A stretch of DNA of 64,000 nucleotides from Nostoc sp. DedSLP01 (GCA_034530875.2 JAVRCJ020000011.1:153055-217054); one strand, 5' to 3'; counted from the stretch's first letter, positions 39,424-57,787 are shown. Notes: generated by a model not told the origin, from the letters alone. Program-made: numbers and translations.

Positions 39424-39439
39424 AATTAAGAAAGTTAGG

Positions 39440-42400
39440 TTAACGATTGAAAGCTATGGCTTTTTCGGCTTCTAGTATCGCCGTTTGTAGTTGTATTGCT
39501 AATACTTTTACATTGGGTTCATAAAGCATTCGTCCATGATTTCCAGGTACAGAAATCACTTTGACAGGCTGTTGAGTATAGGTTTGCCATCCCCAATCAG
39601 GTAAATCGTAATTAGAAGTAGCTCGGATTTCTTGCAACACAATTTCATGCACTTCTTGAGCGCGGAATAAAACAATCGGCGCAGAAATTCGATAATTAGG
39701 TTGATAATTTGCATAATTGAATGTTAGCGATCTCATCACTTTCAGACTGGTTTTGAGTAAAGCAAGGGTAGAGTTTTCGGGTAAAACATTAAATTTGTAC
39801 AAATACTCTGCGGCTAAATCCCACCTGGCTTGGTCATTGGGTTGAGCGGTTAAATCTTCGTATTGCAGTCCTAAAGAAACTTTGTTCAAAATTTCCTGCC
39901 GCCGAATCATTTGCCAAATCCAATCAAGCTCTGTTGTATCTGTCAAATATTCAGGCCGAGAAACTAATCCAGAGTCCAACATAGCTAATAAACTAAGCGT
40001 TTCACCTTGCTGTTCAAGTTGAGAAGCTATTTCAAAAGCAACACCACTACCTGAAGAGTACCCTACTAATATGTATGGGCCTTGGGGTTGCTGTTGACGT
40101 AATAGCTCAATCAATTGCCTTGCATGGGTTTTTACGGATTCAGGGATTGGAGTGGAGCCATCTCGTCCTGGAGTTTCCAGACTATACAGTGGATGTTCGT
40201 TTCCTAAATTAATTGCTAAATCTCGAAAATAGAATCCGTGTCCGTTTGCACCAGGGAGAAAAAATAGAGGAGTTGCATTTCCTTGAGGTTGAAGTAACAG
40301 TAAATCTGGATGGGACTGTTGCACTCCAGTATTACAAATTTGTTCTGCTAGTTGAGCAATAGTAGGGTTCTGAAATAAACTACTCAAGGCAAATTTTTGC
40401 TCAAAAACTTGCTGCATAAGATTGAGCAATTTCACCGCCAATAAAGAATGTCCGCCTAAGTCGAAAAAGTTATCGTAAATTCCAAATTCTTGACTTTTGA
40501 GGACAGTAGACCATAATTGCGCTAGTTTCTGTTCAACTTCGTTGCGTGGGGCTACATTTGATCTTTCAATCCGAAGATGCAAAGCAGGTAAAGCTTTACG
40601 ATCCAACTTACCATTTGGTGTCAGTGGCAGTTTTTCTAAAACAATAAAATGGCTAGGAATCATATAATCAGGGAGAGTTTTACTCAGAAAATCCCGCCAT
40701 TCTTCTAATAAAGCTGGATCGGCTTGATTAGTGCGATATTGCAAAGGCTGGTTGGCGTATTTTTGCCAAGGTTTTAACAGCCAATTACTTTTTGTCGCAA
40801 ATCTTGGTATTGTAACTTCTTCAGGGATATTCTTTTGAAAAACAACATCGTAATCAGAAAAACCTGTCGAGCTATATTGAGTAAACGTTTTATAGGGTAA
40901 ATCTCGCGCTAAAGTTCGCAATGATTCGGGTTCTATTCCTGATTGGATTTGTAAAATTGCAGCTTTTAAATCTGCAAGATTACCCTCTAATTGCGGAATT
41001 TTTTCTAACAACGCCATTTCTGAAGTTAGACGTGCATTCGGAATATTTTTAATACCTAGTAAATCAGGTTGTTCGGTTGCTAAAATTCTTTCGATTGTTT
41101 CCAGATTCAAATTTTGGTTATGCCAATCTAACCATTTAGGTTGTGTTCGGGTAATATTTGCCCTATCTAAATACAAAACAACGTCATAACGAAAACGGCT
41201 CATTTCCGTATGACTGTAACCTCGTTTCAATTCAATCTGTAGGTGACTAATCCTTGGAAATTTTTGCTTGAGGGCGATAAAGAAATCAGGGTCAATTAAT
41301 AATTCTTCTTCGGTGCGAATGCTGTTTTGAATTTGTTGGCGTAAATCTTGAATTGATAATTCATCGGGAGCGCGATAAAATTCGGCTGCGGTGTGGAAAG
41401 CTTCTAATAAATGGAGATTTCGCACATCTCCAATAAAGATTTTACCTTGATGATTGACAGTTTTGATAGCTCCTTCGATGACTGACAGCAGGTAATCTAA
41501 AGAGGGAAAATATTGAATTACAGAATTGATAATTACCAAGTCATAAGCATTGGTTTCAATACCATCAAACTGGTGCGCTGCACTGGTTTTTAAGGTAACT
41601 TTCTCTTGAAGAGACTGCTGTTCTAGATGCTGTGTAATATACTGCAATGCGTCAGGAGAAAAATCTGTTCCTAGATAATGCTGACAATAAGGAGCAATTT
41701 TAAACAATAACATCCCTGAGCCACAGCCAATTTCCCAAACTCTTTTCGGCGCAAGTTCGAGAATTTGCTCAACTGTTTTATCTCGCCATTCTTGCATTGC
41801 TGCTTGGGGAATAGGTTGTGCTGTGTAGCTATCATTCCAACCAACAATATTCAAGGTTGGGTCATCATTAGGATTTTGCTGCTGAGAGTAGTTATCGTTA
41901 AAAAGGTTTTCCCACAATTCTATTAATTCATCTGAGTTCGTGCCTTCTTCGGTTGCTGTGGGGACAATATAAGCTATTAAACGTTTATCTAGATCGGTTT
42001 CTTCCCTAACAATAACAACTGCTTCCTGAATTTTTGAATGTTTGACTAACGAAGCTTCAATTTCACTTAATTCAATCCGAAAACCACGTAGTTTGACCTG
42101 ATTATCAATGCGACCTAAGTATTCTAAATTGCCGTCAGGTAGCCAACGGGCTAAATCGCCAGTTTTATAAATTCGCTCAGTTTTACCGAATAATTCCACT
42201 TCAAGAAATTTTTCGGAGGTTAATTCAGGACGGCTGAGATAACCTCTAGCTAAACCAACTCCTGCAACGCACAATTCTCCTGGTATTCCTGGCGGTAATG
42301 CTTGATTATGTGCATCTAAAATATAGATGTGTACATTAGATATTGGTTTGCCGATTGCTGGTTTTTTGCCATTGGGTTGACAATGAGAAATAGCCGCAGT

Positions 42401-45400
42401 CACAGTAGATTCTGTCGGGCCATAGCAATTATATAAAGATTGTTCATTTCCCCACTGACTAACTAATTCAGCAGTACAAGCTTCCCCACCAACGGTAATA
42501 CATTGCAAATCAGGAAAACTCGCCTTTGGTAAGACTGATAAAGCTGAAGGCGACAAAAAGCTGTGCGTAATTTTGTGTTGGGTTAAAAAGTCAACTAAGC
42601 TTTTACCTGGTAATACAGTGTCTTTATTTCCTAAATATAAACAAGCACCTGCGGATAAAGCAGTCGCAATTTCACCAATAGACAAATCGAAACTAAAAGA
42701 ACCAAATTGAAGCACTCGACTGTGGGATTGCACTTGAAAAGTTTCAACCCAACCCAAGGCAAGGTTAACAATTGCTTTATGCTCAATCATCACTCCCTTT
42801 GGTCTTCCTGTAGAACCAGAGGTGTAAATAACGTAAGCTAAATTATCAGGTGTACTTTGAGGAGTGGGATTATGGGTTAATTCTTCAACAAAAACTTCCT
42901 CATCTAAACAAATGAAGTGGTGTTTTAGTTCAGTTACAGTTAATTGATCTAATAGGAAACTTTGGGTTAGTAATACTGATATCCCAGAATCTTCTAACAT
43001 GAACTTAATCCGTTCTTGGGGATAATTAGGGTCAATCGGTACATAAGCCCCACCCGCTTTGAGGATACCGAGTACACCAATAATCATTTCTAAAGAACGT
43101 TCGACAGAGATACCGATTAATGTATCTGGCTGAATTTGGTAATTTTGAATTAGGTAATGAGCTAGTTGATTCGCTGTTTGATTTAGCTGGTGATAAGTTA
43201 GGCTTTGGGATTCAAAAACTATTGCAATATTATCGGGGGTTTTTGCTGCTTGTTGTTCAAACAGAGTCACCAGTGTTTGGTTATGGGGGTAATCGGTGTC
43301 AGTTTGATTCCAAACTTGCAATTGCTGAATTTCTGCTGTTGTGAGTAAAGGCAGCTGACTGATAGGTTGTTGCGGATTTTGGGTAATTGCTGTCAGCAAG
43401 ACTTCAAAGTGTCTTGCCATGCGCTTAATTGTATCTGCCGCAAATAAATCGGTGGCATATTCCCACACACAGTTTAGTTGGTTGTTATGCTCCCGGAGAT
43501 CCAATCCCAAGTCAAACTTAGCAAATGGGAAACTTTGGTCAAAGGATTGAATCTCAAGCCCTGGTAAACTAACATTTTTCCCCATACCTTCGGTGTTTTG
43601 CAAGGCAATCATCACTTGACACAGTGGGTTACGGCTGAGGCTGCGTTCGGGTTGCAGTTTTTCTACCAAATACTCAAAGGGAATGTCTTGATGAGCATAA
43701 GCATCTAAGCAAGTTTGACGGATTTGTTGCAGTAAATCAATAAATGCTTGCTCTGGCTTGATTTTGCTCCGCAATACTAAAGTATTGACAAAAAAGCCAA
43801 TTAATCGTTCTGTGTAGCTATGGGTGCGGTTAGCGATCGCACTACCAATACATAAATCGTTTTGGCGGCTATAACGCGATAGTAAAATACTAAAAGCCGC
43901 CAACAAAGTCATAAACAAACTCACCCCGTGTTTTTGACTGACGATTTTTAGTTGCTCTGTGAGTTCTTTGCTCAAATAATATTCTTCACGTTCACCTTGG
44001 TAACTTTGTTGCGCTGGACGGGGGTAATCAGTAGCTAACTCCAGTACGCGGGGCGCATCACTTAGTTGTTGTTGCCAATAATCTTCCTGACTGGATAAAA
44101 TTTCCCCTTGTAACCAACTACGCTGCCAAGCTGCATAATCGCTATATTGAATCGGTAAGGGTGATAAATTCGGAGTAGAACCCGCAGCATAAGCTGTGTA
44201 TGCTTGTTCCCATTCCCGCTTAAATACACCCATTGACCAACCATCGCTGATAATGTGGTGCATGTTAATCAGCAGAACATTTTTATGTTCGCTCAGTTGC
44301 AGTAGTTTAGCTCTAAACAGAGGGCCAGTATTTAAGTCAAAGGGTTCTTGTGCATGGGTATCGGCTAACTGTTGTACAGTTTTCGCTTGCGTCAGGGCAT
44401 TGAGTGCTTGTAAATCTGCAATTTCTAAGACTTCTATATCTGCGATATCTTTAACTACTACTTGCGGTTCTCCCTCCAAGGCCGGGAAATAAGTGCGTAA
44501 ACTGTTATGACGTTGTAGCAAATAAGTTAAACTCTGCCGTAAAGCTTCTACATTTAAGTTACCGTCAAGCTGGAGTGCGAAGGGCATATTGTAGCTGGCA
44601 GAATTTCCTTCAGCTTCTAGTTGAGCGAGAAACCAAAGTCTTGATTGAGCAAAAGATAGAGTTTTCGGCTCATTTTCTGGTTGGGGTACAATTGAAGGTA
44701 AAGCAACACTGGCTGATGCTTTGTCAATTTCTCGCGCCAATTCAGATAAAACGCTTTGCTCAAATACCTTGCGGACAGGTAACTCTACCCCAAAACTGTC
44801 ACGAATGCGGGCAACTAATTGAGTTGCTAACAGTGAATGTCCACCCATTTCAAAGAAGTTATCAGAGCGACCTACAGACTGAATTTTTAACAAATCTTGC
44901 CATAAACTAGCCAGTATTTCTTCTGTAGGAGTTACTGGTATTTCTAACTCAGTGGAAGCGGATGTATTGGGTGTTGGTAAGGCGCGGCGATCTAGTTTAC
45001 CGTTAGCAGTCAGAGGCAACTGTTCCAAAACCATTATCTGGCTTGGAATCATATAATTCGGCAGGAGATTTTTCAGGTATTCTTTAACTTCAACCTCTAA
45101 ATTAAGGAATTTTTCTGCCGTCGTAATATAAACCACTAACCTAGGATTGCTATCAGTTTCATATAAAATTACAACAGCTTCTTTAACTGATGAATGTTGT
45201 AATAAAAGTGATTCAATTTCACCAAGTTCAACTCTAAAACCTCGTAACTTCACTTGCTCGTCAATCCGACCCAAATATTCTAAATTGCCTTCAGTATTCC
45301 ATTTTGCTAAGTCACCAGTTTTATAAATTCGCTCAACTTTACCAAATAAATCAATTTCAATAAATTTTTCGGCGGTTAATTCAGGACGATTGAGATAACC

Positions 45401-47932
45401 TCTGGCTAATCCAACTCCCGCAATGCACAACTCACCAGGAATACCAGGAGGTAAGATTTGATTGTGTGCATCTAAAATATAGATGCGGAAATTAGATATT
45501 GGTTTACCAATAGGCGGTTTTTTGCCATTGGGTTGACAAACAGCTATACTTGCACAAACTGTAGATTCCGTCGGCCCATAGGCATTAAAAAAATGTCGTC
45601 CTTTTGCCCATTGGCTCACTAATTCTATTAGACAAGCTTCACCAGCAGTAACTAAAATTTGTAGAGCAGGTAAATTCGCTTGGGGTAACAGGGATAAGAC
45701 TGAAGGAGGTAAAGTGGCATGGGAAATTTTGTGTTCGATTAAAAAGTCAACTAAGCCTTGGCTGGGTAACAAAGTTTCTTTTTTGGCAAGATATAAGCAA
45801 GCACCTGCACCCAAAGTAGTTGTAATTTCCCAAATTGAAGCATCGAAGCTAAAAGAGGCGAACTGAAGTAAACGGCTCTGGGGTTGAATCTGCAAAGCTT
45901 CATCAACCGCCACAGTCAAATTGACCAATCCTCTATGCTCAATCATTACTCCCTTGGGTCTGCCAGTAGATCCAGAGGTGTAGATGACATAAGCCAAATC
46001 ATTAGGTGTACTTTGAGGAAGGGGATTTTCTATTGACTCCTCAGCCAAATTTTCTGCATCTAAACAAATTAATTGAGGAGATTTTTCTAATTCAGGCAGA
46101 GGTAATCGATCTAATAGGAAACTTTGGGTTAATAATACCGATATCCCAGAATCTTCTAACATAAACTTAATCCGTTCTTGAGGATAATTAGGGTCAATCG
46201 GTACATAAGCGCCACCAGCTTTCAGGATACCGAGTACACCAATAATCATTTCTAAAGAACGTTCGACAGAGAGACCAATTAAGGTGTCTGGCTGAATTTG
46301 GTAATTGTGAATTAAATAGTAAGCTAATTGATTAGCTTTTTGATTGAGTTCTTGATAAGTTAAAGTTTTAGACTCAAAAAATACAGCCTGATTATCAGGA
46401 TTTTTTCTAACTTGTTCTTCAAATAAATCAACTAAAGTTTTATCGTGGGGATATTGGGTTTGAGTTTGATTCCAGCTTTGTAATTTATGACGCTCATACT
46501 CTGTAAGCAAAGATAAACTATTGATTGGTTGCTTCGGATTATCAATAATTTGCTTCAGCAGAACCTCAAAATGTCCCGCCATCCGTTGGATAGTTTCAGC
46601 CTCAAACAAATCGGTTGCATATTCCCACTCTCCGGTTAAACCTTGAGGCGTTTCCCGGAAAATCAGCGATAAATCAAACAGTGTCGTGGTGTTTTCCCAC
46701 TCAAAACGGGAAAGAGTTAAGCCAGGAATTTCTAGTTTCTCTGGAGTTCCACTTTGCAAGCCAAAAGCGACTTGAAATAAAGGATGATGAGAAAGCGATC
46801 GCTCTAATCCCAATTCATCAACCAATTTCTCAAAGGGTAAATCTTGATGGTCATAAGCATCTAGGGTTACTTGCTTGACTCGTTCAAGTAATTCTAAGAA
46901 AGTTGGATTTCCTTGCAGCTTAGTACGCAACGCCAAAGTATTGACAAAAAAGCCAATTAGTGGTTCTATTTCTCTACGGTTACGATTGGCGATCGCAGAA
47001 CCAACAACAATATCCTCTTGTCCACTGTAGCGCGACAATAACAGCGTAAATACCGCCAGCATTGTCATAAACAGAGTAGTTCCTGACTCCTGGCTTAAAC
47101 GTTTCAACTGCTGCGTTAAATCTCGATTGAGTTCCAAAAACTCACTCCGCCCTCTGAAACTCTGCACTGATGGGCGTGGTTTATCTGTCGGTAATTCTAA
47201 CAGTGGCGGGACATCTGCTAATTGTTTTTGCCAGTAATTGAGTTGGGTTTGCAGTACTTCTCCCTGTAACCATTGTCTTTGCCAATGGGCGAAATCGGCA
47301 TATTGTAGCGATAATTCGGGTAGAGGAGACGACTCCCCAGCACAGAAAGCCGTGTAAACAGCGAACAATTCCCGGCGGAAGATGTCCATTGACCAGCCAT
47401 CGCAGACAATATGATGGATAACCATTAACAGCAGATGGGATTTTTCAGCCAGTTGTAACAACTTTACTCGCAGCAAAGGCGGGTTTGATAAATCAAAAGG
47501 CTGTTGTAATTCTGAGATCGCAAACTGTCGCGTCTTGCTTAACTGGTGTTCTGTTGGGACTTGTCGCCAGTCTAGCACCTGTAACTTTAGTTGCGGATGA
47601 GCGTGAATCACCTGTATCGGTGACTCATCCACAATAGAGAAGCTAGTGCGTAAGACTTCATGACGTTGGATAATTGTGGCGATCGCTTTTTCTAAAGCAC
47701 TGACATTCAAAACTCCGCTAATTTGCCAGAAAAACGGCACATTATAGACACAATTTTCGCCTTCTAATTGGTCAATAAACCACAGCCTTTGTTGAGCAAA
47801 AGACAGAGGAAGAGGTTGTTCCCTTGATACAGGAGTAAGAGGTGGCGATTTCTGTTGCTTCTTCAGTTTTTGTAAAACTAATTCTCGCTTTTCAGGTGAT
47901 AGATTTTCCAGACGTTTTAGTAAATCGCTCAT
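39440..47932 (-). CDS. aptC: NRPS C-A-T-C-A-nMT-T-TE (AptC-like with terminal thioesterase)
   Basis: HHIVCDG and HHIISDG C domains, two YTSGSTG A domains, VWEIGCGSG methyltransferase, GGHSLL x2, GYSSG thioesterase. Confidence 0.9.
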   Translation of the reverse strand: MSDLLKRLENLSPEKRELVLQKLKKQQKSPPLTPVSREQPLPLSFAQQRLWFIDQLEGENCVYNVPFFWQISGVLNVSALEKAIATIIQRHEVLRTSFSIVDESPIQVIHAHPQLKLQVLDWRQVPTEHQLSKTRQFAISELQQPFDLSNPPLLRVKLLQLAEKSHLLLMVIHHIVCDGWSMDIFRRELFAVYTAFCAGESSPLPELSLQYADFAHWQRQWLQGEVLQTQLNYWQKQLADVPPLLELPTDKPRPSVQSFRGRSEFLELNRDLTQQLKRLSQESGTTLFMTMLAVFTLLLSRYSGQEDIVVGSAIANRNRREIEPLIGFFVNTLALRTKLQGNPTFLELLERVKQVTLDAYDHQDLPFEKLVDELGLERSLSHHPLFQVAFGLQSGTPEKLEIPGLTLSRFEWENTTTLFDLSLIFRETPQGLTGEWEYATDLFEAETIQRMAGHFEVLLKQIIDNPKQPINSLSLLTEYERHKLQSWNQTQTQYPHDKTLVDLFEEQVRKNPDNQAVFFESKTLTYQELNQKANQLAYYLIHNYQIQPDTLIGLSVERSLEMIIGVLGILKAGGAYVPIDPNYPQERIKFMLEDSGISVLLTQSFLLDRLPLPELEKSPQLICLDAENLAEESIENPLPQSTPNDLAYVIYTSGSTGRPKGVMIEHRGLVNLTVAVDEALQIQPQSRLLQFASFSFDASIWEITTTLGAGACLYLAKKETLLPSQGLVDFLIEHKISHATLPPSVLSLLPQANLPALQILVTAGEACLIELVSQWAKGRHFFNAYGPTESTVCASIAVCQPNGKKPPIGKPISNFRIYILDAHNQILPPGIPGELCIAGVGLARGYLNRPELTAEKFIEIDLFGKVERIYKTGDLAKWNTEGNLEYLGRIDEQVKLRGFRVELGEIESLLLQHSSVKEAVVILYETDSNPRLVVYITTAEKFLNLEVEVKEYLKNLLPNYMIPSQIMVLEQLPLTANGKLDRRALPTPNTSASTELEIPVTPTEEILASLWQDLLKIQSVGRSDNFFEMGGHSLLATQLVARIRDSFGVELPVRKVFEQSVLSELAREIDKASASVALPSIVPQPENEPKTLSFAQSRLWFLAQLEAEGNSASYNMPFALQLDGNLNVEALRQSLTYLLQRHNSLRTYFPALEGEPQVVVKDIADIEVLEIADLQALNALTQAKTVQQLADTHAQEPFDLNTGPLFRAKLLQLSEHKNVLLINMHHIISDGWSMGVFKREWEQAYTAYAAGSTPNLSPLPIQYSDYAAWQRSWLQGEILSSQEDYWQQQLSDAPRVLELATDYPRPAQQSYQGEREEYYLSKELTEQLKIVSQKHGVSLFMTLLAAFSILLSRYSRQNDLCIGSAIANRTHSYTERLIGFFVNTLVLRSKIKPEQAFIDLLQQIRQTCLDAYAHQDIPFEYLVEKLQPERSLSRNPLCQVMIALQNTEGMGKNVSLPGLEIQSFDQSFPFAKFDLGLDLREHNNQLNCVWEYATDLFAADTIKRMARHFEVLLTAITQNPQQPISQLPLLTTAEIQQLQVWNQTDTDYPHNQTLVTLFEQQAAKTPDNIAIVFESQSLTYHQLNQTANQLAHYLIQNYQIQPDTLIGISVERSLEMIIGVLGILKAGGAYVPIDPNYPQERIKFMLEDSGISVLLTQSFLLDQLTVTELKHHFICLDEEVFVEELTHNPTPQSTPDNLAYVIYTSGSTGRPKGVMIEHKAIVNLALGWVETFQVQSHSRVLQFGSFSFDLSIGEIATALSAGACLYLGNKDTVLPGKSLVDFLTQHKITHSFLSPSALSVLPKASFPDLQCITVGGEACTAELVSQWGNEQSLYNCYGPTESTVTAAISHCQPNGKKPAIGKPISNVHIYILDAHNQALPPGIPGELCVAGVGLARGYLSRPELTSEKFLEVELFGKTERIYKTGDLARWLPDGNLEYLGRIDNQVKLRGFRIELSEIEASLVKHSKIQEAVVIVREETDLDKRLIAYIVPTATEEGTNSDELIELWENLFNDNYSQQQNPNDDPTLNIVGWNDSYTAQPIPQAAMQEWRDKTVEQILELAPKRVWEIGCGSGMLLFKIAPYCQHYLGTDFSPDALQYITQHLEQQSLQEKVTLKTSAAHQFDGIETNAYDLVIINSVIQYFPSLDYLLSVIEGAIKTVNHQGKIFIGDVRNLHLLEAFHTAAEFYRAPDELSIQDLRQQIQNSIRTEEELLIDPDFFIALKQKFPRISHLQIELKRGYSHTEMSRFRYDVVLYLDRANITRTQPKWLDWHNQNLNLETIERILATEQPDLLGIKNIPNARLTSEMALLEKIPQLEGNLADLKAAILQIQSGIEPESLRTLARDLPYKTFTQYSSTGFSDYDVVFQKNIPEEVTIPRFATKSNWLLKPWQKYANQPLQYRTNQADPALLEEWRDFLSKTLPDYMIPSHFIVLEKLPLTPNGKLDRKALPALHLRIERSNVAPRNEVEQKLAQLWSTVLKSQEFGIYDNFFDLGGHSLLAVKLLNLMQQVFEQKFALSSLFQNPTIAQLAEQICNTGVQQSHPDLLLLQPQGNATPLFFLPGANGHGFYFRDLAINLGNEHPLYSLETPGRDGSTPIPESVKTHARQLIELLRQQQPQGPYILVGYSSGSGVAFEIASQLEQQGETLSLLAMLDSGLVSRPEYLTDTTELDWIWQMIRRQEILNKVSLGLQYEDLTAQPNDQARWDLAAEYLYKFNVLPENSTLALLKTSLKVMRSLTFNYANYQPNYRISAPIVLFRAQEVHEIVLQEIRATSNYDLPDWGWQTYTQQPVKVISVPGNHGRMLYEPNVKVLAIQLQTAILEAEKAIAFNR

Positions 47933-47957
47933 AATAATTATTGTTAAAAGTATGGAT

Positions 47958-48046: not shown

Positions 48047-48052
48047 AAATTC

Positions 48053-51000
48053 TCACGAAACTAACTCCTTCCTCACCTCTTCCTCCGATAACTCATCCAC
48101 CTCCGCCAAAATCCTTGCTAAATCATCATTTTCTACTTGCTCATTCACTTTTTGCGCTAGTTCAGCAATAGTTGGATTTTCAAACAAATAACGTAAAGGA
48201 AAATCTAAACTAAAAGCCTCTTTTAAACGAGAAACAACTTGAGTAGCTAATAAAGAATGTCCCCCTAGCTCAAAGAAGTTATCGTGAATCCCCACTTGTT
48301 TTAACTTTAAAACCTCTTTCCAAATCGTGGCTAATTCCTCTTCAATTGGTGTGCGTGGAGCAACAAAATCAACTTCTATATTTCTTTGATAACTATCAGG
48401 AGCAGGCAAAGCGCGACGATTGAGTTTACCATTAGGTGTGAGAGGGAATTTATCAAGAAATACGAAAGCAGTAGGAATCATGTAATCAGGTAACTTTGCC
48501 TTAAGGAAGTTTCGTAAGGTGCTAGGAGTTGGTGAATTATCCTCAGCAACCAAATAGGCTACTAATAATTTATTTCCTGGTTCCTCTTCCCGTGCAATGA
48601 CTACAACTTGTTTTATATCAGGATATTGAACTAAAATAGCTTCAATTTCTGCTAATTCAATGCGAAAACCGCGAATCTTTACTTGTGTATCAATTCTACC
48701 GATAAAATTCAGATTACCATCAGGTAAACGGCAGACTAAATCTCCAGTTTTGTAAAGGATATCTCCAGCAATAAAAGGATTAGGTATAAATTTTTGATTG
48801 GTTAATTTTGCTTGATTTAAGTAACCTCTAGCTACACTTGCACCACCTACATACAGTTCACCAGTAACACCAATTGTAACTCTATTTAAATTTTCATCTA
48901 GTATATAAACTGTTCTATCACCTATGGGTTTACCAATAGGAACTGAATGGACATTTTCAGTAAGTTGTTGAAGAATCGGATAACAACAGGTAAATACTGT
49001 ACATTCAGAAGGCCCATAGCCATTAATTATTTGGGTTTCTGGTAATAGTTCTAAGGCACGTCGAACATGATTTACAGAAAGAGCTTCTCCCCCAATGAGC
49101 AGTTGTTTAACACCTAATAATCCTGATGGTATTGTATCAATCATTAAATTGAATAAGGCGGAAGTTAGCCACAAGATATTAACTTTTTCTTCTTGAAGAA
49201 TGTGGCTTAAGCCTTCTGGCGTAGCAATTCTTTCTGCATACAGTACACAACGCCCACCATAAAGCAATGGTGTCCAAAGTTCTAGGGCTGACGCATCCCA
49301 AGAAATCGATGAATGTTGCAGCCAAATTTGGCTTGCATCAAGGTGGATATAATCAACACCAAACATAACACCAATAAAGCTACGATGGGGAACTTCTGTA
49401 CCTTTTGGTGTTCCCGTTGAGCCAGAGGTATAAATGATATAAGCTAAATTGTCTGGATTAACTTCACTGGGTAAATTATCTTGTTTTTGTTGGGCAATAA
49501 TTTTCCAATCTGCGTCAAGATTCACCACAGTTTGATTATTAATTGGTAGCTGATTTTGTAAATGAGTTTGTGTTAATAATATAGATGCTTCTACATCTTC
49601 CAGCATGAACGCTAATCTTTCAGCAGGATAAGCTGGATCTAGGGGAACGTAAGCCCCTCCCGCTTTGAGAATAGCGAGTATTCCGATTACCATTTCTAAG
49701 GAACGCTCAACACAAATTCCCACCCGAACTTCAGGTTTAACTCCTAGCGATCGCAAATAATGAGCTAATTGATTGGCACGATTATTTAACTCCCGATAAG
49801 TTAAATGTTGTTGTTGATATACAACTGCTATGGCATCAGGACTTTTTTCTACCTGTTCTTCAAATAAAATATGAATACATTTATAATTAATAGAATTTCC
49901 TTGTTGATGATTCTCTAGTAAAATTAACTGTTTTTCTTCTTCTGCACTGAGTAAAGATAATTGAGAAATATATTGTTGTAAGTTATCTGCCATCCCTATT
50001 AGCAAAGTTTGGAAATGTCCAATCATGCGGACAATTGTTTGCTCCTCAAAACAGCTAGTATCATAAACAATCCTGCCAGCTAATTGTGAACCGGGATTAA
50101 TTACTAATGTGATAGGATAATTCGTGCGTTCCCAACAGCTAATATTACTAATCTCTAAAGTTTTTTGAATTTCTGGTTTAGCAGAATCTAAAGGATAATT
50201 TTCAAATACTAAAATACTTTCAAAAAGTGGCAATCCGGTCGGTATGTCACTTAATTGTTGAATTTCTGCAAGAGAAAAATAAGCATATTGTTCCTGCTCT
50301 AATGCTTGGGTTTGTAATTGCTTAAGCCAAGGTAATATTTCTGTCTTGGCTGTTACTTTTGCCCGAATGGGGAGGGTGTTGATAAATAGCCCCACCATCG
50401 ACTCTACTTGCTCAAGCTGCGGTGGACGACCGGATACAGTTGCACCAAAGACTACATCGCTTTCTCCACTGTAACGAGAAATTAATAATGCATAAGCTCC
50501 TTGTACCAAATTATTCAAAGTTAAATGGTGCTGTCGCGCTGCAAATTGCAATTTTTCAGTTACCGTTTGAGATAATTGAAAACGTTGCTCATTATATATT
50601 CCCTTTCCCTTGTTACCTCCCAATAAAGTAGGAGTTTCAAATCCCTGAAGAGTTTTTTGCCAAAAGTTCTTTGCTTGCTCAATATTCTGTTGCTGTAACC
50701 ATTCAATATATTCTCGATAAGGGCGAACTCCCTGAAGGCGTAAATTTTCGCCTCGCTGGTTTGCTTCATAAAAAGTCAAAACTTCTTTGAGGACAATCTG
50801 CATTGACCAGCCATCAAAGAGGATATGATGATGACTCCAAATAAATTGGTATTTTTGCTCTGTTAGCTGAATGATGGTGAAGCGCATTAGAGGTGCTTGA
50901 GCCAAATCGAATTTCTTTTGGCGATCGCTTGACAAAAACTCCTCTAAATGCACTTGTTGTTCATCAGGTGTTAAATGTCGCCAGTCCATTTGCACCCAAG

Positions 51001-51250
51001 GAAGATCCACTTGCTTGCTCACCATTTGCAAGGGCTTTTCTATCTCTTCCCAATAAAAAGAACTGCGTAACACAGAATGTCGCGCCACAACCTGTTCCCA
51101 AGCTTTTTGGAAAGCAGAAAAATTCAATTTTCCAGAGAGAATGCAAAGTAACTGCTCAAAATAAACTTCCGATTCTGGTGCATAAAGGGTATGAAACAAC
51201 ATCCCTTGTTGCATCGGTGAAAGTTCATAAAGGTCTTCGATATTTTGCAT
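48053..51250 (-). CDS. aptB: NRPS C-A-T (AptB-like; Val/Ile-type pocket)
   Basis: IEDLYELSPMQQGMLFH DCL-type start, HHILFDG; pocket read by eye as DALWLGGVFK. Confidence 0.9.
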   Translation of the reverse strand: MQNIEDLYELSPMQQGMLFHTLYAPESEVYFEQLLCILSGKLNFSAFQKAWEQVVARHSVLRSSFYWEEIEKPLQMVSKQVDLPWVQMDWRHLTPDEQQVHLEEFLSSDRQKKFDLAQAPLMRFTIIQLTEQKYQFIWSHHHILFDGWSMQIVLKEVLTFYEANQRGENLRLQGVRPYREYIEWLQQQNIEQAKNFWQKTLQGFETPTLLGGNKGKGIYNEQRFQLSQTVTEKLQFAARQHHLTLNNLVQGAYALLISRYSGESDVVFGATVSGRPPQLEQVESMVGLFINTLPIRAKVTAKTEILPWLKQLQTQALEQEQYAYFSLAEIQQLSDIPTGLPLFESILVFENYPLDSAKPEIQKTLEISNISCWERTNYPITLVINPGSQLAGRIVYDTSCFEEQTIVRMIGHFQTLLIGMADNLQQYISQLSLLSAEEEKQLILLENHQQGNSINYKCIHILFEEQVEKSPDAIAVVYQQQHLTYRELNNRANQLAHYLRSLGVKPEVRVGICVERSLEMVIGILAILKAGGAYVPLDPAYPAERLAFMLEDVEASILLTQTHLQNQLPINNQTVVNLDADWKIIAQQKQDNLPSEVNPDNLAYIIYTSGSTGTPKGTEVPHRSFIGVMFGVDYIHLDASQIWLQHSSISWDASALELWTPLLYGGRCVLYAERIATPEGLSHILQEEKVNILWLTSALFNLMIDTIPSGLLGVKQLLIGGEALSVNHVRRALELLPETQIINGYGPSECTVFTCCYPILQQLTENVHSVPIGKPIGDRTVYILDENLNRVTIGVTGELYVGGASVARGYLNQAKLTNQKFIPNPFIAGDILYKTGDLVCRLPDGNLNFIGRIDTQVKIRGFRIELAEIEAILVQYPDIKQVVVIAREEEPGNKLLVAYLVAEDNSPTPSTLRNFLKAKLPDYMIPTAFVFLDKFPLTPNGKLNRRALPAPDSYQRNIEVDFVAPRTPIEEELATIWKEVLKLKQVGIHDNFFELGGHSLLATQVVSRLKEAFSLDFPLRYLFENPTIAELAQKVNEQVENDDLARILAEVDELSEEEVRKELVS

Positions 51251-51265
51251 AGTTCCCCCTGGAAA

Positions 51266-51296
51266 GTTGACTGTTGACGGTTGACTGTTGACTGTT
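51266..51296. repeat. Heptamer repeat (GTTGACT)n
   Basis: About 4 tandem copies between NRPS genes. Confidence 0.8.
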
Positions 51297-51298
51297 AG

Positions 51299-54200
51299 CT
51301 ATTTGGTTTTGTTGAGTTTGGCTAGGAATTTATCAAGTTGTTTTTGATTGAGTTTCGCTGCTGAAAAATCAGATGGGGTATAGCTTTGAGAATCTTTTGA
51401 TTGACAGTGAGCAATGAGGGTTTTTAGTGCTTCTATAAATCCTGAAGCTAACCGTTCAATGGTGTCTTGCTTGTGAACTTTCTCGCTATAAGCCCAAGTC
51501 ATTTCGAGTTTTCCTGCACGAATAAAGCCGCTTATTCCTAACAGATGGCTACGTCTATTGAGTAAGCTTTGTTCGGATTTGAATTCCTTAGCCAAACCCA
51601 ACACTTCAGATGCTTTCAGCACTTGGTCGAATTGTCCCAGGTAGTTAAAACTAACTTGTGCTACGGGTAATGACTGCAATTTTTCCCGAATTGTGGTGTT
51701 TTCGTGCAAATATCGCAATACACCATAACTAATTCCTCGGTTGGGGATGCGCCGCAGTTGTTCTTTGATTGACTTTAAAGCCTCTCCGGGATGCTCAATT
51801 TCTCCTAGCTGTAAGCCAACTGGGAATAATGTAGTAAACCAACCGACAGTCCGCGACAAATCTACATCCTCAAATAAGTCTTCGCGTCCATGTCCTTCCA
51901 AATCAATTAGTAAAGAACTTTCGCCTGTCCACTGAGTAAAACTTTGTACTAAGGCTGTCAATAACACATCATTAATTTGAGTGTTGTATGCAGATGGTAC
52001 ATCTTGTAAAAGTGAGCGTGTCTGTTCTTCGTTTAAAGCAAGTGACACAGAAGCAGTTGAAGCTACGGTGTTATTCTGTTTATCAGAAGGATAATCTACT
52101 GGGAAAGCTGTAACTTGAAGGCTAGATTGACTTAGCCAGTAATCCAACTCTTTGATAGCCTGTGTTTGGGCATATTCTGTCAGGCGATCGCTCCAATATT
52201 GCCAAGAAGTTGTTTTCGCTGGTAATCTAATAGCCTCACCCCGACTCATTTGTTGGTAAGCAGTCGCTAAGTCTTCTAATAGAATCCGCCAAGAAACGCC
52301 ATCGACTGCTAAGTGATGAATAACGAAGAGTAAACAACTTGGTTGATTCTTGCCTAATTGAAATAGTGCTACTTTTGCGATCGCTCCTGTAGATAAATCC
52401 AAACTAGCCTGAAGTTCAGCATCTTTAGTGGCGATCGCTTTTTGCTGTTCTGCTGGCGAAAGGTGGGACAAATCAAAGACGCTCAAGAGTACAGATTCCT
52501 GAATAGCGGCATTAATTTGCAGCCAGTTTTCCCCTTCCTGCATAAACCGCAAACGCAACGCATCGTGATGTGCTAACAATTGCTGTACTACTTGCTGCAA
52601 TAGTTCAGGTTGCACATCTGACGGTACTTCTAGCAGTGCTGACTGGTTAAAGTAATGGGGTTCGGGTAATTTTTGCTCGAAAAACCAATGTTGAATCGGT
52701 GTCAAAGCTACAGAACCAGTTACTAGCGCTTGTTCGGCGTTGATTTGACGAGTGATACCTGCTACAGTCCCTAACTCAGCAATTGTTTGATACTTAAATA
52801 ACTGTTTAGCAGCAATTTGGATACCTGCTTGGTTCGCTTTGGAAATTAACTGAATACTGAGAATAGAATCTCCACCCAGTTCAAAGAAATTATCGTGGAT
52901 GCCAACATTTTCTACTCTTAAAACTTCCGACCAAATCGCCACTAATTTCTCTTCTATCAGTGTACGAGGAGCAATAAATTTATCTTCAGCACTGCGATAA
53001 AAGTCGGGTGTAGGTAGAGCGCGGTAGTCTACCTTTTGGTTGGGAGTCATCGGTATGCTTTCCAGTAGCATGAACGCAGCTGGAATCATGTAATGAGGTA
53101 GTTTCTGCTTGAGGAAATCGCGTAATTCATTGGTGGTTGGTTGCGGTTTTTGGGGTACAACGTAAGCCACAAGCCGCTTTTGTCCGGGGGTATCTTCATG
53201 AGCAATGACAACAACTTGCAATACTTGTGGGTGTTGTCTCAATACCGCTTCAATTTCGCCCAATTCGATGCGAAAACCGCGAATCTTCACCTGATTATCA
53301 ACTCTACCCAAGTATTCCAGCTTGCCATCCTTGCAGAATCTTACTAAATCCCCAGTTTTGTAAAGTTTACTGTCTCCTGCCTTCTCAATAAATTTCTCTG
53401 CTGTCAGTTCAGGACGTTGCCAATATCCTCTAGCTAATCCTGCGCCACCAATATGCAGTTCTCCCGGAACGCCTATCGGTACAGGTTGCTGATATTGGTC
53501 TAAAACACAAACTTGAGCATTGCTGATGGGTCGTCCAATACTAACAAAGGTGGCTGCTGGGGTTAAGCGTTCTAATGTGCTAACAACCGTTGCTTCTGTC
53601 GGCCCGTAAGTATTGAATAATTCGGGTACTGGGGAAAGATGAGCCACACAACTATGCCAATGCTGCACTTTTTCTAGTTGAACTGCTTCACCACCAATAA
53701 TTACAGTTCTCAAACCTTCATAAATGCGAGAATCTTGGGGCTTAAGTTCTGTTACTAACTGATGCCAGTATGCTGTCGGCAAATCTAAAACAGTTAACTG
53801 CCATTTTTGGCAATACCGCCAAAAATCCTCGCTGGAGTTGAGTATTTCTTCGGTGCGTAAAACTAAGGTTGCACCAACGCACAAACAAGGAAAGATTTCT
53901 TCAATCGATGTATCAAAGCAAATAGATGCAAATTGCAGAACCTTATCGCTGGTCTTGATGCCATATTCATCAATGGCGGTATTGACAAAATTCATCAACG
54001 AGCGATGTTCGATTGTTACACCCTTGGGTTTTCCCGTAGAACCTGAGGTATAAATAATATAAGCTAGGTTATTTAGTTGAACGTCGCTAATTGGATTGGT
54101 TGTACTTTGTGGTGCGATTAATTTCCAATCTGTATCTAAACAAATTGTTTTTCCGGTATAACCTAGCAATTTTTCTTGGAATTTATCTTGCGTCAGCAAA

Positions 54201-57200
54201 AAGCCGAGTTGCGTATCGGCGATAATTTCAGCGATTCGCTCTTGGGGATAAGCTGGGTCAAGGGGAACATAAGCACCACCAGCTTTGAGAATGCCGAGTA
54301 AGCCAGCGATCGCGTTTAGGGAACGCTCAACGCAGATACCAACCAGGGTTTCTGGTTTGACTCCCAAACTTTGTAGATAGTGGGCGATTTTGTTGGAGCG
54401 ATCGCTCAATTCGCGGTAAGTTAATTTCTGCCCATCCTGCTCTACAGCTACAGCATCCGGCGTTAACTCTACCTGAGCCTCAAACAACTTATGGATACAT
54501 TCATTAGTGGAATACTTTTTGTGAGTCTGATTCCACTCCATCAATAATTGCTGTTGAGACTGGGTTAGCAGTGGTAGATCGGAAATTTGCTGCTCTGGGT
54601 TAGCAACAATCTTTTCTAGTAAATTTTGATACTGCTCTACCATTTGCTGGATTGTGGCAGCGTCGAATAAATCAGTGTTGTATTCCCAAATAGCCGTAAT
54701 TCCTTTACCTTCGCCATATTGCGGAATTAAAACTACATCTAGGTCAAACTTTGTTGATTTGTTGCTGAGGGCTACATTCGTTGCGATCTTCAAGCCTGGA
54801 AGAGTTAAGTCAGGCCGGGGAGAATCATGGAAGCTAAACATCACTTGAAACAGTGGATTATAACTCAAGTTCCGGATTGGCTTCAGAACTTCCACGACCT
54901 TATCGAAGGGTAAATCTTCGTTAGCAAAGGCTTCCAACGTGACTTGGCGGACTCGACTTAACAACTCCGCAAATGTAGGATTACCAGACAAATCGGTGCG
55001 TAATACCAAATTATTGACAATCATGCCAATTAATTGTTCTGTTTCGCGCATCCGCCGATTGGCAACAGCTGTACCCACACACAGATCCTCTTGTGCGGTG
55101 TAACGGCGCAATATTATTAAAAAAGCCGCCAGCGTGGTCATGAATAAAGTAGTTCCCTGTTGACGGCTGAGAACTCTCAAAGATTCGCACAAGGGAATAG
55201 GCAACTCTACCCTGACTTGAGTACCATTGTAAGTTTGTTCTACTGGTCGGGGGCGATCGTAGGGTAATTCCAACAGAGGCGGACTGCCGGATAATTTTTG
55301 CTGCCAAAAAGCTAATTGAGCTTGGGCTTCCTCGCTTTTCACCCACTCTCGCTGCCAATGTGCATAGTCGGCAAACTGGAGTGTTAATTCTGGTAGTGGG
55401 GAAGGCTTACCCAAACAGAAGGCTTGATAAAGTGCGAGAAACTCATTTAAAAATACATTGTTGAAAGACCAACCATCATGAACCATGTGATGTTCGATGT
55501 GGATTAACAGATGTTCTTGGTCGCTCAACTTCAACAATAACCATCTAACTAACGGCAGTTTATCCAAGTAAAAAGGCTTCTGCACCTCTGCGTCAAATAA
55601 ACGCTGAATTTCTGCTTCTTGCTCGGACTCAGGAACAGTCTGGACATCTACCACTTTTAAGTTCACTGGCCAAGCTGGATGGATTACTTGAAATAAGCGT
55701 CCAGAAGCGGCGGGAAAAGTCGTGCGGAAGATTTCATGTCGTCGGACAATCTCACTAAGGCACTGTTCTAATGCTGCAATATTAAGTTGTCCGGTGAATC
55801 GTAGAGTTACCTGAGCTTGATAGGCGCTACCTTCCGGTGCTACTTCTTGAATGAAATGCACTCGCTCTTGAGCAAAGGAAGCTGGTAAGTATTCTGAGCG
55901 TGGAACTGGTTGGATTGCAGGACGTTGTAATTGCTGTTGGAGGTGGTTGGGCTGTTCAATCAGCGCAGCTAAACCCGCTATGGTAGGATTGGCGAAGATG
56001 TGGTGAAAGAATAACTCGACTTGGAAACCATCGCGGATGCGGGAAAGCATTTGCGCCGCGATTAAAGAATGACCGCCTAAATTGAAAAAATTGTCATTGA
56101 TTCCTATCGGCTCAATTTGCAGTAACTCAGTCCAGATACTTGCTAGTTTTTCTTCAATTGAGTTACGCGGTGCAACAAAGGTTTCTTCGAGGTCGGGGCG
56201 GGTGCGATCGCCCTTTGGCAGATTTTGCCGATCTACCTTACCATTTGGAGTAAGCGGTAAAGAATCTAAAATGACAAATACCCCAGGAACCATGTAATTA
56301 GGCAGTTTTTCTTCCAGAAAGCATTTGAGGGTAGCGATAATTGCTTCTGGTTTTTGATTAAGGACTATATAAGCAACAAGCCGTTTATCGCCAGGAATAT
56401 CTTCACGGGCAATTACAGCTACTTGTTTGACATCTGGGTGTTGAATTAAAAGTTTCTCGATTTCATCCAGTTCAATGCGGAAGCCGCGAATCTTTACTTG
56501 ATTGTCAACTCGTCCTAGAAACTCAATATTCCCATCTAGTAAATAACGTGCCAAATCTCCAGTTTTATATAATCTGCTTCCTGCCTCGTCAAACGGATTG
56601 GAAATAAATCTTTCTTTAGTTAACTCAGGACGGTTCAAATAGCCTCTGGCCAAGCCATCGCCACCAATATATAATTCGCCAGGAGTCCCAATAGGAACGG
56701 GTTGCAAATGGTTATCGAGGATATAAACTTGAGTATTAGCGATCGCTTTACCAATGGTTGCTTGAGTATCCCCACCAGTACATTCTGCAACTGTGGCACA
56801 AACTGTTGATTCCGTTGGCCCGTAAGCATTAAAGAAACGCCGCCCTTTTGACCATTGAGCTATCAGCTTAGCATTACAAGCTTCTCCAGCAACGATGAGA
56901 GTTTGTAAGTTTGGCAATTCTTCTAGCGGTAAAGCTGCTAGCGCTGTGGGTGGTAGTGTGACGTGAGCGATCGAATGCTCGCGCAAAAATTTTATTAAAT
57001 CTGCTCCTGGGCGCAAGGAATCTTGAGTTCCCATATAAAGACTAGCTCCAGAACCCAAAGCCATCACAATTTCCCAAACTGAAGCATCAAAGCTGAAAGA
57101 AGCAAACTGAAGAACACGGCTATGCGGGTGTACATCAAACAATTGAATTTGTGCTTGGGCAAGATTGCATACACCTTGATGCTGAATCAGCACGCCTTTG

Positions 57201-57787
57201 GGCGTTCCAGTTGACCCAGATGTATAAATCACATAAGCGAGATTTTCCGCCGTCACATCGCTAGTAGGATTTTCGTGACTCTGGCTGTTAATTGATTCCC
57301 AGTCACTATCCAAACAAACTGTCTTCACCCCGCTTGCAGAAAATTCATCAACAAACTTCTGCTGAGTTAACAGCACTTGCACTTGTGAATCTGACAACAT
57401 GAACGATAAACGTTCTTTGGGATAGGTTGGGTCTAATGGAAGATATGCGCCACCTGCCTTAAGAATCCCTAATAACCCGACAATCATTTGTAGGGAACGC
57501 TCAACACAAATCCCTATCAGAACTTCTTTCCCTACACCCAAAGATTGCAAATAATGAGCTACTTTATTAGCGCGGTGATTCAACTCTTGATAAGTAAGTT
57601 TCTGTTCGTCGAAGACAAGAGCAATATTGTCTGGAGTTTTTTCCACTTGTGCGGCAAATAATTCATGTATGCACAAATGTTTAAGATAATCTACCTTTGT
57701 ATCATTCCATTCCAGCAATATTTTGTGTCGTTCTTGCTCAGTTAAAACAGACAAATTCTGAAGATCGCGAGTAGAGTTGCTCACCAT
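51299..57787 (-). CDS. aptA: NRPS A-T-C-A-T-E (AptA-like; Phe then D-Lys, ureido-forming)
   Basis: Starter A domain (pocket DAWTIAAVCK), HHMVHDG C domain, second A (DTEDIGTVVK, Lys-type), GGDSI carrier domain, epimerase HHLAVDG/EGHGRE/RTVGWFT. Confidence 0.92.
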   Translation of the reverse strand: MVSNSTRDLQNLSVLTEQERHKILLEWNDTKVDYLKHLCIHELFAAQVEKTPDNIALVFDEQKLTYQELNHRANKVAHYLQSLGVGKEVLIGICVERSLQMIVGLLGILKAGGAYLPLDPTYPKERLSFMLSDSQVQVLLTQQKFVDEFSASGVKTVCLDSDWESINSQSHENPTSDVTAENLAYVIYTSGSTGTPKGVLIQHQGVCNLAQAQIQLFDVHPHSRVLQFASFSFDASVWEIVMALGSGASLYMGTQDSLRPGADLIKFLREHSIAHVTLPPTALAALPLEELPNLQTLIVAGEACNAKLIAQWSKGRRFFNAYGPTESTVCATVAECTGGDTQATIGKAIANTQVYILDNHLQPVPIGTPGELYIGGDGLARGYLNRPELTKERFISNPFDEAGSRLYKTGDLARYLLDGNIEFLGRVDNQVKIRGFRIELDEIEKLLIQHPDVKQVAVIAREDIPGDKRLVAYIVLNQKPEAIIATLKCFLEEKLPNYMVPGVFVILDSLPLTPNGKVDRQNLPKGDRTRPDLEETFVAPRNSIEEKLASIWTELLQIEPIGINDNFFNLGGHSLIAAQMLSRIRDGFQVELFFHHIFANPTIAGLAALIEQPNHLQQQLQRPAIQPVPRSEYLPASFAQERVHFIQEVAPEGSAYQAQVTLRFTGQLNIAALEQCLSEIVRRHEIFRTTFPAASGRLFQVIHPAWPVNLKVVDVQTVPESEQEAEIQRLFDAEVQKPFYLDKLPLVRWLLLKLSDQEHLLIHIEHHMVHDGWSFNNVFLNEFLALYQAFCLGKPSPLPELTLQFADYAHWQREWVKSEEAQAQLAFWQQKLSGSPPLLELPYDRPRPVEQTYNGTQVRVELPIPLCESLRVLSRQQGTTLFMTTLAAFLIILRRYTAQEDLCVGTAVANRRMRETEQLIGMIVNNLVLRTDLSGNPTFAELLSRVRQVTLEAFANEDLPFDKVVEVLKPIRNLSYNPLFQVMFSFHDSPRPDLTLPGLKIATNVALSNKSTKFDLDVVLIPQYGEGKGITAIWEYNTDLFDAATIQQMVEQYQNLLEKIVANPEQQISDLPLLTQSQQQLLMEWNQTHKKYSTNECIHKLFEAQVELTPDAVAVEQDGQKLTYRELSDRSNKIAHYLQSLGVKPETLVGICVERSLNAIAGLLGILKAGGAYVPLDPAYPQERIAEIIADTQLGFLLTQDKFQEKLLGYTGKTICLDTDWKLIAPQSTTNPISDVQLNNLAYIIYTSGSTGKPKGVTIEHRSLMNFVNTAIDEYGIKTSDKVLQFASICFDTSIEEIFPCLCVGATLVLRTEEILNSSEDFWRYCQKWQLTVLDLPTAYWHQLVTELKPQDSRIYEGLRTVIIGGEAVQLEKVQHWHSCVAHLSPVPELFNTYGPTEATVVSTLERLTPAATFVSIGRPISNAQVCVLDQYQQPVPIGVPGELHIGGAGLARGYWQRPELTAEKFIEKAGDSKLYKTGDLVRFCKDGKLEYLGRVDNQVKIRGFRIELGEIEAVLRQHPQVLQVVVIAHEDTPGQKRLVAYVVPQKPQPTTNELRDFLKQKLPHYMIPAAFMLLESIPMTPNQKVDYRALPTPDFYRSAEDKFIAPRTLIEEKLVAIWSEVLRVENVGIHDNFFELGGDSILSIQLISKANQAGIQIAAKQLFKYQTIAELGTVAGITRQINAEQALVTGSVALTPIQHWFFEQKLPEPHYFNQSALLEVPSDVQPELLQQVVQQLLAHHDALRLRFMQEGENWLQINAAIQESVLLSVFDLSHLSPAEQQKAIATKDAELQASLDLSTGAIAKVALFQLGKNQPSCLLFVIHHLAVDGVSWRILLEDLATAYQQMSRGEAIRLPAKTTSWQYWSDRLTEYAQTQAIKELDYWLSQSSLQVTAFPVDYPSDKQNNTVASTASVSLALNEEQTRSLLQDVPSAYNTQINDVLLTALVQSFTQWTGESSLLIDLEGHGREDLFEDVDLSRTVGWFTTLFPVGLQLGEIEHPGEALKSIKEQLRRIPNRGISYGVLRYLHENTTIREKLQSLPVAQVSFNYLGQFDQVLKASEVLGLAKEFKSEQSLLNRRSHLLGISGFIRAGKLEMTWAYSEKVHKQDTIERLASGFIEALKTLIAHCQSKDSQSYTPSDFSAAKLNQKQLDKFLAKLNKTK

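Follow-up and report, generated by a model that had tools for sequence, protein, structure and literature searches.

The DNA analysed here, referred to as the window, is the final 64 kb (64,000 nucleotides) of contig C11 in the draft genome of Nostoc sp. DedSLP01, an assembly of 8.57 Mb in 113 contigs that is 99.78 % complete. It carries nonribosomal peptide synthetase (NRPS) genes of the apt type, which is the machinery behind the anabaenopeptins, widespread cyanobacterial inhibitors of carboxypeptidases and phosphatases. Following these analyses, we propose with a probability of roughly 60 % that the locus is a genuine anabaenopeptin-type cluster whose sixth module was deleted by homologous recombination, so that a product with a 16-membered ring is predicted. 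The five-module apt-like locus is an ordered gene content rather than a chance pattern, and we regard it as very likely that the five-module architecture is real.

The cluster lies on the minus strand. Its first synthetase gene, aptA (51299..57787, 2162 aa), encodes modules 1 and 2 in the order A(Phe)-T-C-A(Lys)-T-E (A, adenylation; T, carrier; C, condensation; E, epimerase domain), a ureido-forming start followed by D-Lys. The second, aptB (48053..51250, 1065 aa), encodes module 3 as C-A(Val/Ile)-T. Both were annotated from Pfam, a motif scan and a pocket alignment. The third, which we call aptC* (39440..47932, 2830 aa; Pfam, motif scan and segment BLAST), combines modules 4 and 5 with the release domain as C-A(Phe-type)-T-C-A(Hty/Hph-type)-MT-T-TE (Hty, homotyrosine; Hph, homophenylalanine; MT, methyltransferase; TE, thioesterase). 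For comparison we took canonical clusters from two related genomes, G044 and G101, the latter of the same genus. AptA is 79 % identical to AptA of G044 over its full length and AptB 82 % to its counterpart there. The gene order in G044 is hphB-hphCD-aptA-B-C-D-hphA-ABC and the window is identical in order apart from the lost module, whereas in G101 the order is aptA-B-C-D-ABC. AptA, AptB and the flanking genes show 70-86 % identity to the canonical clusters.

The flanking genes are those of an apt locus. Upstream are an hphB-like isopropylmalate-dehydrogenase paralogue for homo-amino-acid supply (59519..60610, Pfam Iso_dh; 83 % identical to the gene in the same position in G044, with an NCBIfam leuB score under the equivalog cut-off) and an hphCD-like gene encoding fused small and large subunits of the aconitase family (57820..59571, Pfam Aconitase and Aconitase_C; NCBIfam homoaconitate/isopropylmalate dehydratase family; 86 % identical to its G044 counterpart). 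Downstream are an hphA-like HMGL/isopropylmalate-synthase paralogue (38227..39423, Pfam and NCBIfam; 80 % identical to the gene after aptD in G044) and an ABC transporter of the aptE/F type (36045..38066, Pfam ABC_membrane_2 and ABC_tran; 77 % and 73 % identical to the cluster-ending transporters of G044 and G101). The three NRPS frames, about 18 kb, contain no internal stop or frameshift, and the core motifs HHxxxDG, A3, A5, A8, A10 and GGxS and the TE motif GYSSG are present across them; the GGxS of the first carrier domain of AptC* was not matched by the regular expression, and Pfam gives two PP-binding stretches in that protein. A preliminary description of this DNA had given the same three domain architectures, which Pfam and the motif scan return unchanged; it had also held that frames and catalytic motifs were intact, as is borne out here, and that hphA begins too soon after the TE stop to leave space for aptD, and the gap does measure 16 nt. 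The bimodular AptA starter with its Lys adenylation domain and epimerase, the single C-A-T module of AptB, the hph genes and the ABC exporter of apt clusters are thus all found, while two features differ: AptC* does not end with its own carrier domain and docking tail, and in place of a separate sixth module AptD (C-A-T-TE) the T-TE part is joined to AptC*.

To trace the origin of the fusion, AptC* was compared segment by segment, using BLAST, with AptC and AptD of G044 and G101. C4, T4, C5, the methyltransferase and the C-terminal subdomain of the adenylation domain are AptC-like, with 72-87 % identity from C4 through A5(MT) and 95 % identity to AptC of G044 over aa 2411-2450. The N-methyltransferase inserted in A5 (aa 1996-2410; 40703..41947; Pfam Methyltransf_12/25/31) is 72-75 % identical to the AptC methyltransferases of G044 and G101 and 82-84 % to the Nodularia/Sphaerospermopsis type. 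The carrier domain (aa 2471-2545; 40298..40522), assigned by segment BLAST, the junction alignment and a comparison of invariant columns, is 73 % and 71 % identical to AptD carrier domains as against 42 % to the AptC module-5 carrier domain, and the thioesterase behind it (aa 2546-2830; 39443..40297; Pfam Thioesterase), which retains GYSSG and PGNH, is 76-77 % identical to that of AptD. In the junction alignment the protein is AptC-like through the A10 motif (LPLTPNGKxDRKALPA) and AptD-like from the linker on, and the docking tail that closes canonical AptC (...NSDEEEIEL) is missing. These results suggest that AptC* is an AptC shortened by a crossover inside the A10/LPxP block, and alignment and segment BLAST place the putative crossover interval at aa 2436-2455 (PLTPNGKLDRKALPAL...; 40568..40627). 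Such a crossover, in the conserved block that closes the adenylation domains of both module 5 (aptC) and module 6 (aptD), would have removed the module-5 carrier domain, the C-terminal docking end of AptC, the N-terminal docking end of AptD, C6 and A6, and would have left A5(MT) joined in frame to the carrier domain and thioesterase of AptD. Judged by its sequence, AptC* is AptC minus exactly these parts, one module lost in frame.

No trace of the missing module was found elsewhere in the genome. The best non-self match of a C5 query across the whole genome had 51 % identity, and the only other TE matches were four, all at or below 34 %. An AptD query of 992 aa, which finds an 82 % match in another, aptD-bearing genome, recovered in this genome only the C5-A5 (70 %) and C4-A4 (62 %) regions of the cluster itself, followed by unrelated modules at or below 55 %. 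One candidate for a stand-alone aptD was a TE-bearing frame of 1372-1400 aa on contig C10; it was rejected, since it shares only 31-32 % (TE) and 44 % (C-A region) identity with the apt proteins and has other NRPS modules around it. There is therefore no aptD-like C6/A6 anywhere in the 99.78 % complete genome.

The junction was also examined in assemblies of sequencing runs. Three runs of one study of a root metagenome, the probable source, yield a single 6261-nt contig at k=31 that spans 38200-43000 with 0 differences at a depth of 185-474, although these runs cannot count as independent of the assembly and rare variants are lost from contigs. This contig is unbranched across the junction and ends within a 300-nt, 87 %-identical repeat shared by A4 and A5, so that repeats do break such contigs and the junction does not. 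In run X4, from another study (a rhizosphere metagenome), contigs are 93-96 % identical to the window, and one of 548 nt with 21 differences covers 40437-40984 and hence bridges the junction. No exact repeat of at least 20 nt involves the junction within 36000-58000.

Having characterized the junction, we asked how rare it is. AptD-type T-TE sequences (65-76 % identity) occur in 33 of 200 other genomes of the family, in frames of 1364-1452 aa in 26 of them, of 1806 aa in one and shorter in six, at least some of these six sitting at contig ends; a frame of 2840 aa is found among these family matches in the window only. A junction-spanning query of 301 aa was matched over its full length in only two of 389 family genomes (126 belonging to the same genus), namely G000, which is the genome of the window, and G343 (contig C390). 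The other matches listed break off near residue 234 (in frames of about 2536-2720 aa) or begin near residue 90-112 (in frames of about 1364-1456 aa); contig ends limit a few frames, and an unrelated 2566-aa protein accounts for one match. No additional junction-spanning match came from a sample of 401 genomes of the phylum, and none of the 32 loci from a scan of JGI metagenomes spans the junction. Among 185,579 species representatives the scan returned 56 loci, with the junction spanned by L052 only. In a search of 5.8 billion proteins, AptC* alone covers 100 % of the MT-T-TE query among the best 120 of 7695 matches.

Several proteins from these searches were considered as examples of the same architecture and set aside. 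P0015 (2887 aa) has both a methyltransferase and a thioesterase, in the different order dock-C-A-MT-T-C-A-T-TE. P0002 (3910 aa) is AptC and AptD joined head-to-tail (C-A-T-C-A-MT-T-C-A-T-TE) and belongs to the six-module type; it is the opposite kind of fusion, in which all six modules are retained. P0004 (1789 aa) is AptD-like with a different inserted methyltransferase: a terminal module dock-C-A-T-TE with 70 % identity in T-TE and a PRMT5-like methyltransferase within the A domain, represented by 11 member sequences. P0003 and P0005 are C-A-T-E-C-A-T-TE proteins. Together with G213:C1:3965007-3965510 they read C-A(DLGFTGCVTK)-T-E-C-A(DAWTIAAVCK)-T-TE, with T-TE 63-67 % identical to the apt type and Sphaerospermopsis kisseleviana as one source label, and this group appears from its sequences to represent another small-peptide pathway with the same Hty-type pocket and TE lineage.

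L052 is an apparent second fusion. It comes from a metagenome-assembled genome (MAG) of Nostoc sp. isolate JTS-RE360 (contig C390 of G201/G343), where a 6410-nt contig holds a 5'-open frame of 2070 aa ending ...A-T-C-A-MT-T-TE. The protein is 70 % identical to AptC*, switches from AptC to AptD in the same A10 block, and has an Asn-like A5 pocket (DATTVGEVGK). The MAG (86 % complete, 5 % contamination) also contains canonical aptA-B-C and the start of aptD on C592, and the end of aptD on C988 (L106-L108). At the DNA level the canonical aptC and aptD of this MAG share only 84 % and 81 % identity with L052. A chimera of these two genes was therefore rejected, and the contig is taken as a locus or strain of its own: two apt-type loci within a single genome would fit these sequences, and so would two co-binned strains. 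A misjoin within a second strain may also explain the contig.

We used phylogenies of the two halves of the fusion to look at the number of origins. A C5+MT tree of 21 rows places the window with AptC of P0063, P0064, P0078 and L040 (source labels Nodularia spumigena, Anabaena sp., Sphaerospermopsis reniformis and Nostoc sp.) at 100 % support in the SH-like approximate likelihood-ratio test (SH-aLRT), and L052 with canonical AptC sequences that include the one from its own MAG. A common C5+MT clade, as expected for a single origin of both fusions, is rejected by the approximately unbiased (AU) test with p-AU 3e-9. For the T-TE tree (43 rows; two duplicates and two partial rows excluded) the single-origin test gives p-AU 0.38, which is compatible with one origin or with two. 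Because the AptC parts of the window and L052 fall in different clades, the fusion probably arose twice, and two independent deletions at the same conserved motif are the simplest reading of the sequences; perhaps a later replacement of C5-MT by recombination took place instead.

The residues of the product were predicted from the pocket codes of the five A domains, which were taken from a separate alignment. From A1 to A5 they are DAWTIAAVCK, DTEDIGTVVK, DALWLGGVFK, DAWTVAAVCK and DLGFTGCVTK, letter for letter those of the preliminary description, whose substrate reading also agrees with published apt clusters in the match of the A5 code and in an A4 core closest to the Phe type of AptD. By the Stachelhaus code we take A1 to be the classical Phe code and A3 to be Val/Ile. 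The A1 code is identical to that of A1 in G044, and the A2 code, DTEDIGSVIK in G044, is the apt Lys code and is followed by an E domain. The A5 code equals the AptC module-5 code of P0078 and is one residue off AptC of Nodularia spumigena (P0063); N. spumigena strains have MeHty or MeHph in position 5 (PMC7150779, Table 1). NMe-Hty or NMe-Hph is accordingly the predicted residue at position 5, and the hph genes would supply such residues. The A4 core (A3 to A8) is 82 % identical to the AptD cores of G101 (DAWTVAGVCK) and L053, and at most 77 % to AptC module-4 cores. In N. edaphicum DAWTVAGVC corresponds to Phe at position 6 and DLGTIGCVI to Hph/Hty at position 4 (PMC9564503, Tables 3-4). From the nearness of the A4 core to the AptD Phe type and from this correspondence, the position-4 residue is most likely Phe.

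Two further observations concern the A domains. The A4 core (window 45000-46000, aa about 650-890) resembles the position-6 cores of AptD, which makes the cluster a mosaic, and its Phe-type core may have been copied out of the former module 6. The 300-nt similarity between the N-terminal parts of A4 and A5 (42923-43222, 46085-46384; 87 % identity) looks like gene conversion between the two aptC* modules.

Taken in order, the five modules suggest the following pathway. AptA would load Phe and Lys, form the ureido link and epimerise Lys; AptB would add Val or Ile; and AptC* would add a Phe-type residue and then N-methyl-homotyrosine or N-methyl-homophenylalanine, with the hph genes feeding this last step. 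The AptD-type thioesterase would release the chain through attack of the Lys epsilon-amine, and the adjacent ABC transporter would export the product. By collinearity, five modules predict five residues and a 16-membered ring, so the predicted product is Phe-CO-cyclo[D-Lys-Val/Ile-Phe-NMe-Hty/Hph], a 16-membered lactam. We think that a five-residue ureido peptide is probably made, and give this exact lactam slightly less than an even chance. Our recalculation gives C41H52N6O8 with [M+H]+ 757.3919 for the Hty form and 741.3970 for the Hph form, in agreement with the formula and masses proposed earlier. Some tolerance of the thioesterase towards ring size is indicated by the attribution of namalides, with their 13-membered ring, to apt synthetases (PMC8402340, in excerpt).

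The release domain and the coding sequence as a whole appear to have been maintained. The T-TE part of AptC* keeps 91 of the 95 columns that are invariant in 41 canonical AptD T-TE rows; in a leave-one-out control the canonical rows have a median of 1 changed column and a maximum of 7. Between aptC* and its relative in X4, 36 scored substitutions comprise 23 synonymous and 13 non-synonymous changes with no indels reported, and this points to purifying selection on aptC* after the fusion.

A number of observations weigh against the proposed deletion and its predicted product. The terminal branch of the T-TE is long (0.33), and the four changed invariant residues include a change from GYSSGCA to GYSSGSG beside the nucleophile; this could reflect adaptation or relaxation. 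The LPxP motif reads LPAL in the window (40568-40582, aa 2451-2455), whereas LPxP is found in 10 of 10 aligned canonical AptC/AptD module ends and in L052. The fusion also creates a non-native interface between A subdomain and carrier domain, with A5 paired to a foreign carrier domain, and in a survey of natural NRPS recombination this interface was preserved almost always (PMC8097286, in excerpt). The 36 scored substitutions are a subset, with 161 further differences beyond them and four changes left out as lying outside aptC* or in mixed contigs. The X4 bridge rests on k-mer contigs rather than raw reads, and an ambiguous X4 joint from 42843 to 40583, with a short side of 33 letters, touches the junction. 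We read this joint and a loose end at 40615 as a cross-match of A3/A10 motifs from another NRPS; because the loose letters encode a different sequence upstream of A10 and the short side is so short, the joint was treated as uninformative. Finally, the substrates are predicted from pocket codes and similarity, and the product from the genes.

These points bear on the alternatives to different degrees. An assembly artefact, in which collapse of similar carrier or A10 regions hides a sixth module, was a concern raised in the preliminary description. Such a collapse is conceivable in a 113-contig draft with many NRPS genes split over small contigs and with the junction inside a conserved motif. 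However, with only about 42 % identity the carrier domains of the AptC and AptD types are too dissimilar for a collapse to be plausible, and there is neither an exact repeat at the junction nor an orphan AptD-like C6/A6 contig. With the k=31 contig unbranched in three runs at single-copy-like depth and broken at the true A4/A5 repeat instead, and with the independent run X4 bridging the same junction, the concern is answered as far as contigs allow and an artefact is very improbable. We hold it equally improbable that a sixth residue comes in trans from another NRPS, or from iterative use of a module, to give a normal hexapeptide. The genome does have many other NRPS modules, including the TE-ending frame on C10, but that frame is remote from the apt proteins, and AptC* lacks the C-terminal docking tail of AptC and has its carrier domain fused directly to the TE.

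Another possibility accepts the architecture and differs in the release: a linear ureido pentapeptide (+18.011), a namalide-type tetrapeptide Phe-CO-[D-Lys-Val/Ile-Phe] formed by skipping of module 5, or a mixture. In the excerpted literature, 13-membered namalides are reported from apt synthetases via module skipping (PMC8402340), N. spumigena CENA596 makes namalides only, though a full apt cluster is present (PMC8402340; PMC7150779), and a table gives the sponge namalide as Phe/D-Lys/Ile/Phe (PMC12927552), the same as the predicted residues 1-4 (Phe, D-Lys, Val/Ile, Phe). Module 5 could be slowed by its non-native A-T pair and by the LPAL change, and these two features, with the long T-TE branch, keep hydrolysis, partial skipping and low activity as live alternatives. 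Nevertheless, module 5, its methyltransferase and the hph genes show no damage, and their retention would be pointless if the module were always skipped; we consider this outcome unlikely. Less likely again is that the locus is a recent deletion derivative, still open in frame, that is silent or non-productive and heading for decay. The same interface, altered LPxP and long branch would fit such a derivative, as would its rarity (2 of 389 family genomes, 0 of 400 other genomes of the phylum sample, 0 of 32 metagenome loci). It is opposed by the roughly 18 kb of NRPS frame without a stop or frameshift, by a relative of about 96 % identity in another study that keeps the junction with mostly synonymous changes, by the retained invariant T-TE residues, and by the existence of a second, apparently independent fusion. 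Deletion of module 6 from an anabaenopeptin-type cluster is the explanation that we prefer.

Compared with known systems, the window is closest in content to canonical AptABCD / ApnA-D clusters (Anabaena sp. 90, Nodularia, Nostoc punctiforme, N. edaphicum CCNP1411; PMC8402340 and PMC9564503, in excerpt). They share the gene order, the AptA and AptB architectures, the Lys code followed by an E domain, the methyltransferase in module 5, the AptD-type T-TE, the hph genes and the transporter, and window proteins are 70-87 % identical to those of G044 and G101. In contrast to these clusters, the window has five modules rather than six, without a separate aptD, T5, docking ends, C6 and A6; its position 4 has a Phe-type core instead of the usual Hty/Hph pocket; and its predicted ring is 16-membered instead of 19-membered. 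Namalides, ureido tetrapeptides with a 13-membered Lys lactam, are like the window's predicted product in being ring-contracted ureido-Lys lactams from apt-type machinery, and the sponge compound matches its residues 1-4 (PMC12927552, in excerpt). They are attributed to skipping on a complete six-module line, which is absent from the window; here the shortening would be hard-wired by the deletion of one module, with five residues expected. By analogy, the nearest evolutionary parallel would be nodularin synthetase, derived from the microcystin type by loss of two modules and likewise a natural cyanobacterial NRPS module deletion that shrinks the ring (PMC8097286, in excerpt), although the window belongs to another pathway, lost one module and exchanged a carrier domain through an A10/LPxP crossover. 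L052 shares the end ...A-T-C-A-MT-T-TE with the window and differs in its AptC clade, its Asn-like A5 pocket and the canonical aptABCD in the same MAG.

No apt cluster with five modules, no ureido-Lys lactam with a 16-membered ring and no occurrence of these pocket codes in an apt context came up in the literature as excerpted, which did not extend to Shishido et al. 2017. The Shishido et al. study (ACS Chem Biol) reportedly surveyed many apt clusters. Within that scope, our searches found no earlier description of the five-module apt line or its predicted pentapeptide. A 2026 review defines anabaenopeptins by the 19-membered ring, with the 13-membered namalide as the sole smaller scaffold (PMC12927552, in excerpt).

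Other genes in the window lie beyond the cluster. Just downstream of it, past a small HD-domain (RelA/SpoT-like) gene at 35262-35834, a 1958-aa protein (29264-35140, minus strand) has Ser/Thr kinase, AAA_16 ATPase, TPR, GAF, PAS and histidine-kinase ATPase domains. For two long open reading frames, 9456-13562 (plus strand, 1368 aa) and 25147-29076 (minus strand, 1309 aa), Pfam gives nothing at E <= 1e-5; the former is preceded by a DUF7925 protein (4455-6989) and a DUF11 protein (7897-9459).

With its five modules fixed in the genes, the line predicts the missing 16-membered scaffold and its exact masses, and these make the prediction directly testable by liquid chromatography-mass spectrometry or heterologous expression. 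The cluster is of interest to natural-product chemists and NRPS engineers because it amounts to a natural experiment in which a module was apparently removed at A10/LPxP, placing a non-native A-T pair before a native T-TE pair, and it probes the ring-size freedom of the AptD thioesterase. Module loss at this point appears to have happened twice and then to have been kept under purifying selection. If our reading is true, these fusions would be natural working examples of an exchanged A-subdomain/carrier interface, which the recombination survey found to be avoided (PMC8097286, in excerpt). More tentatively, crossover at A10/LPxP joining the two final apt modules may be a route that nature has taken repeatedly to hard-wire ring contraction. 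It would have created an undescribed family of 16-membered ureido-Lys-lactam pentapeptides in soil- and root-associated Nostoc, intermediate in ring size between the 13-membered namalides and the 19-membered anabaenopeptins.

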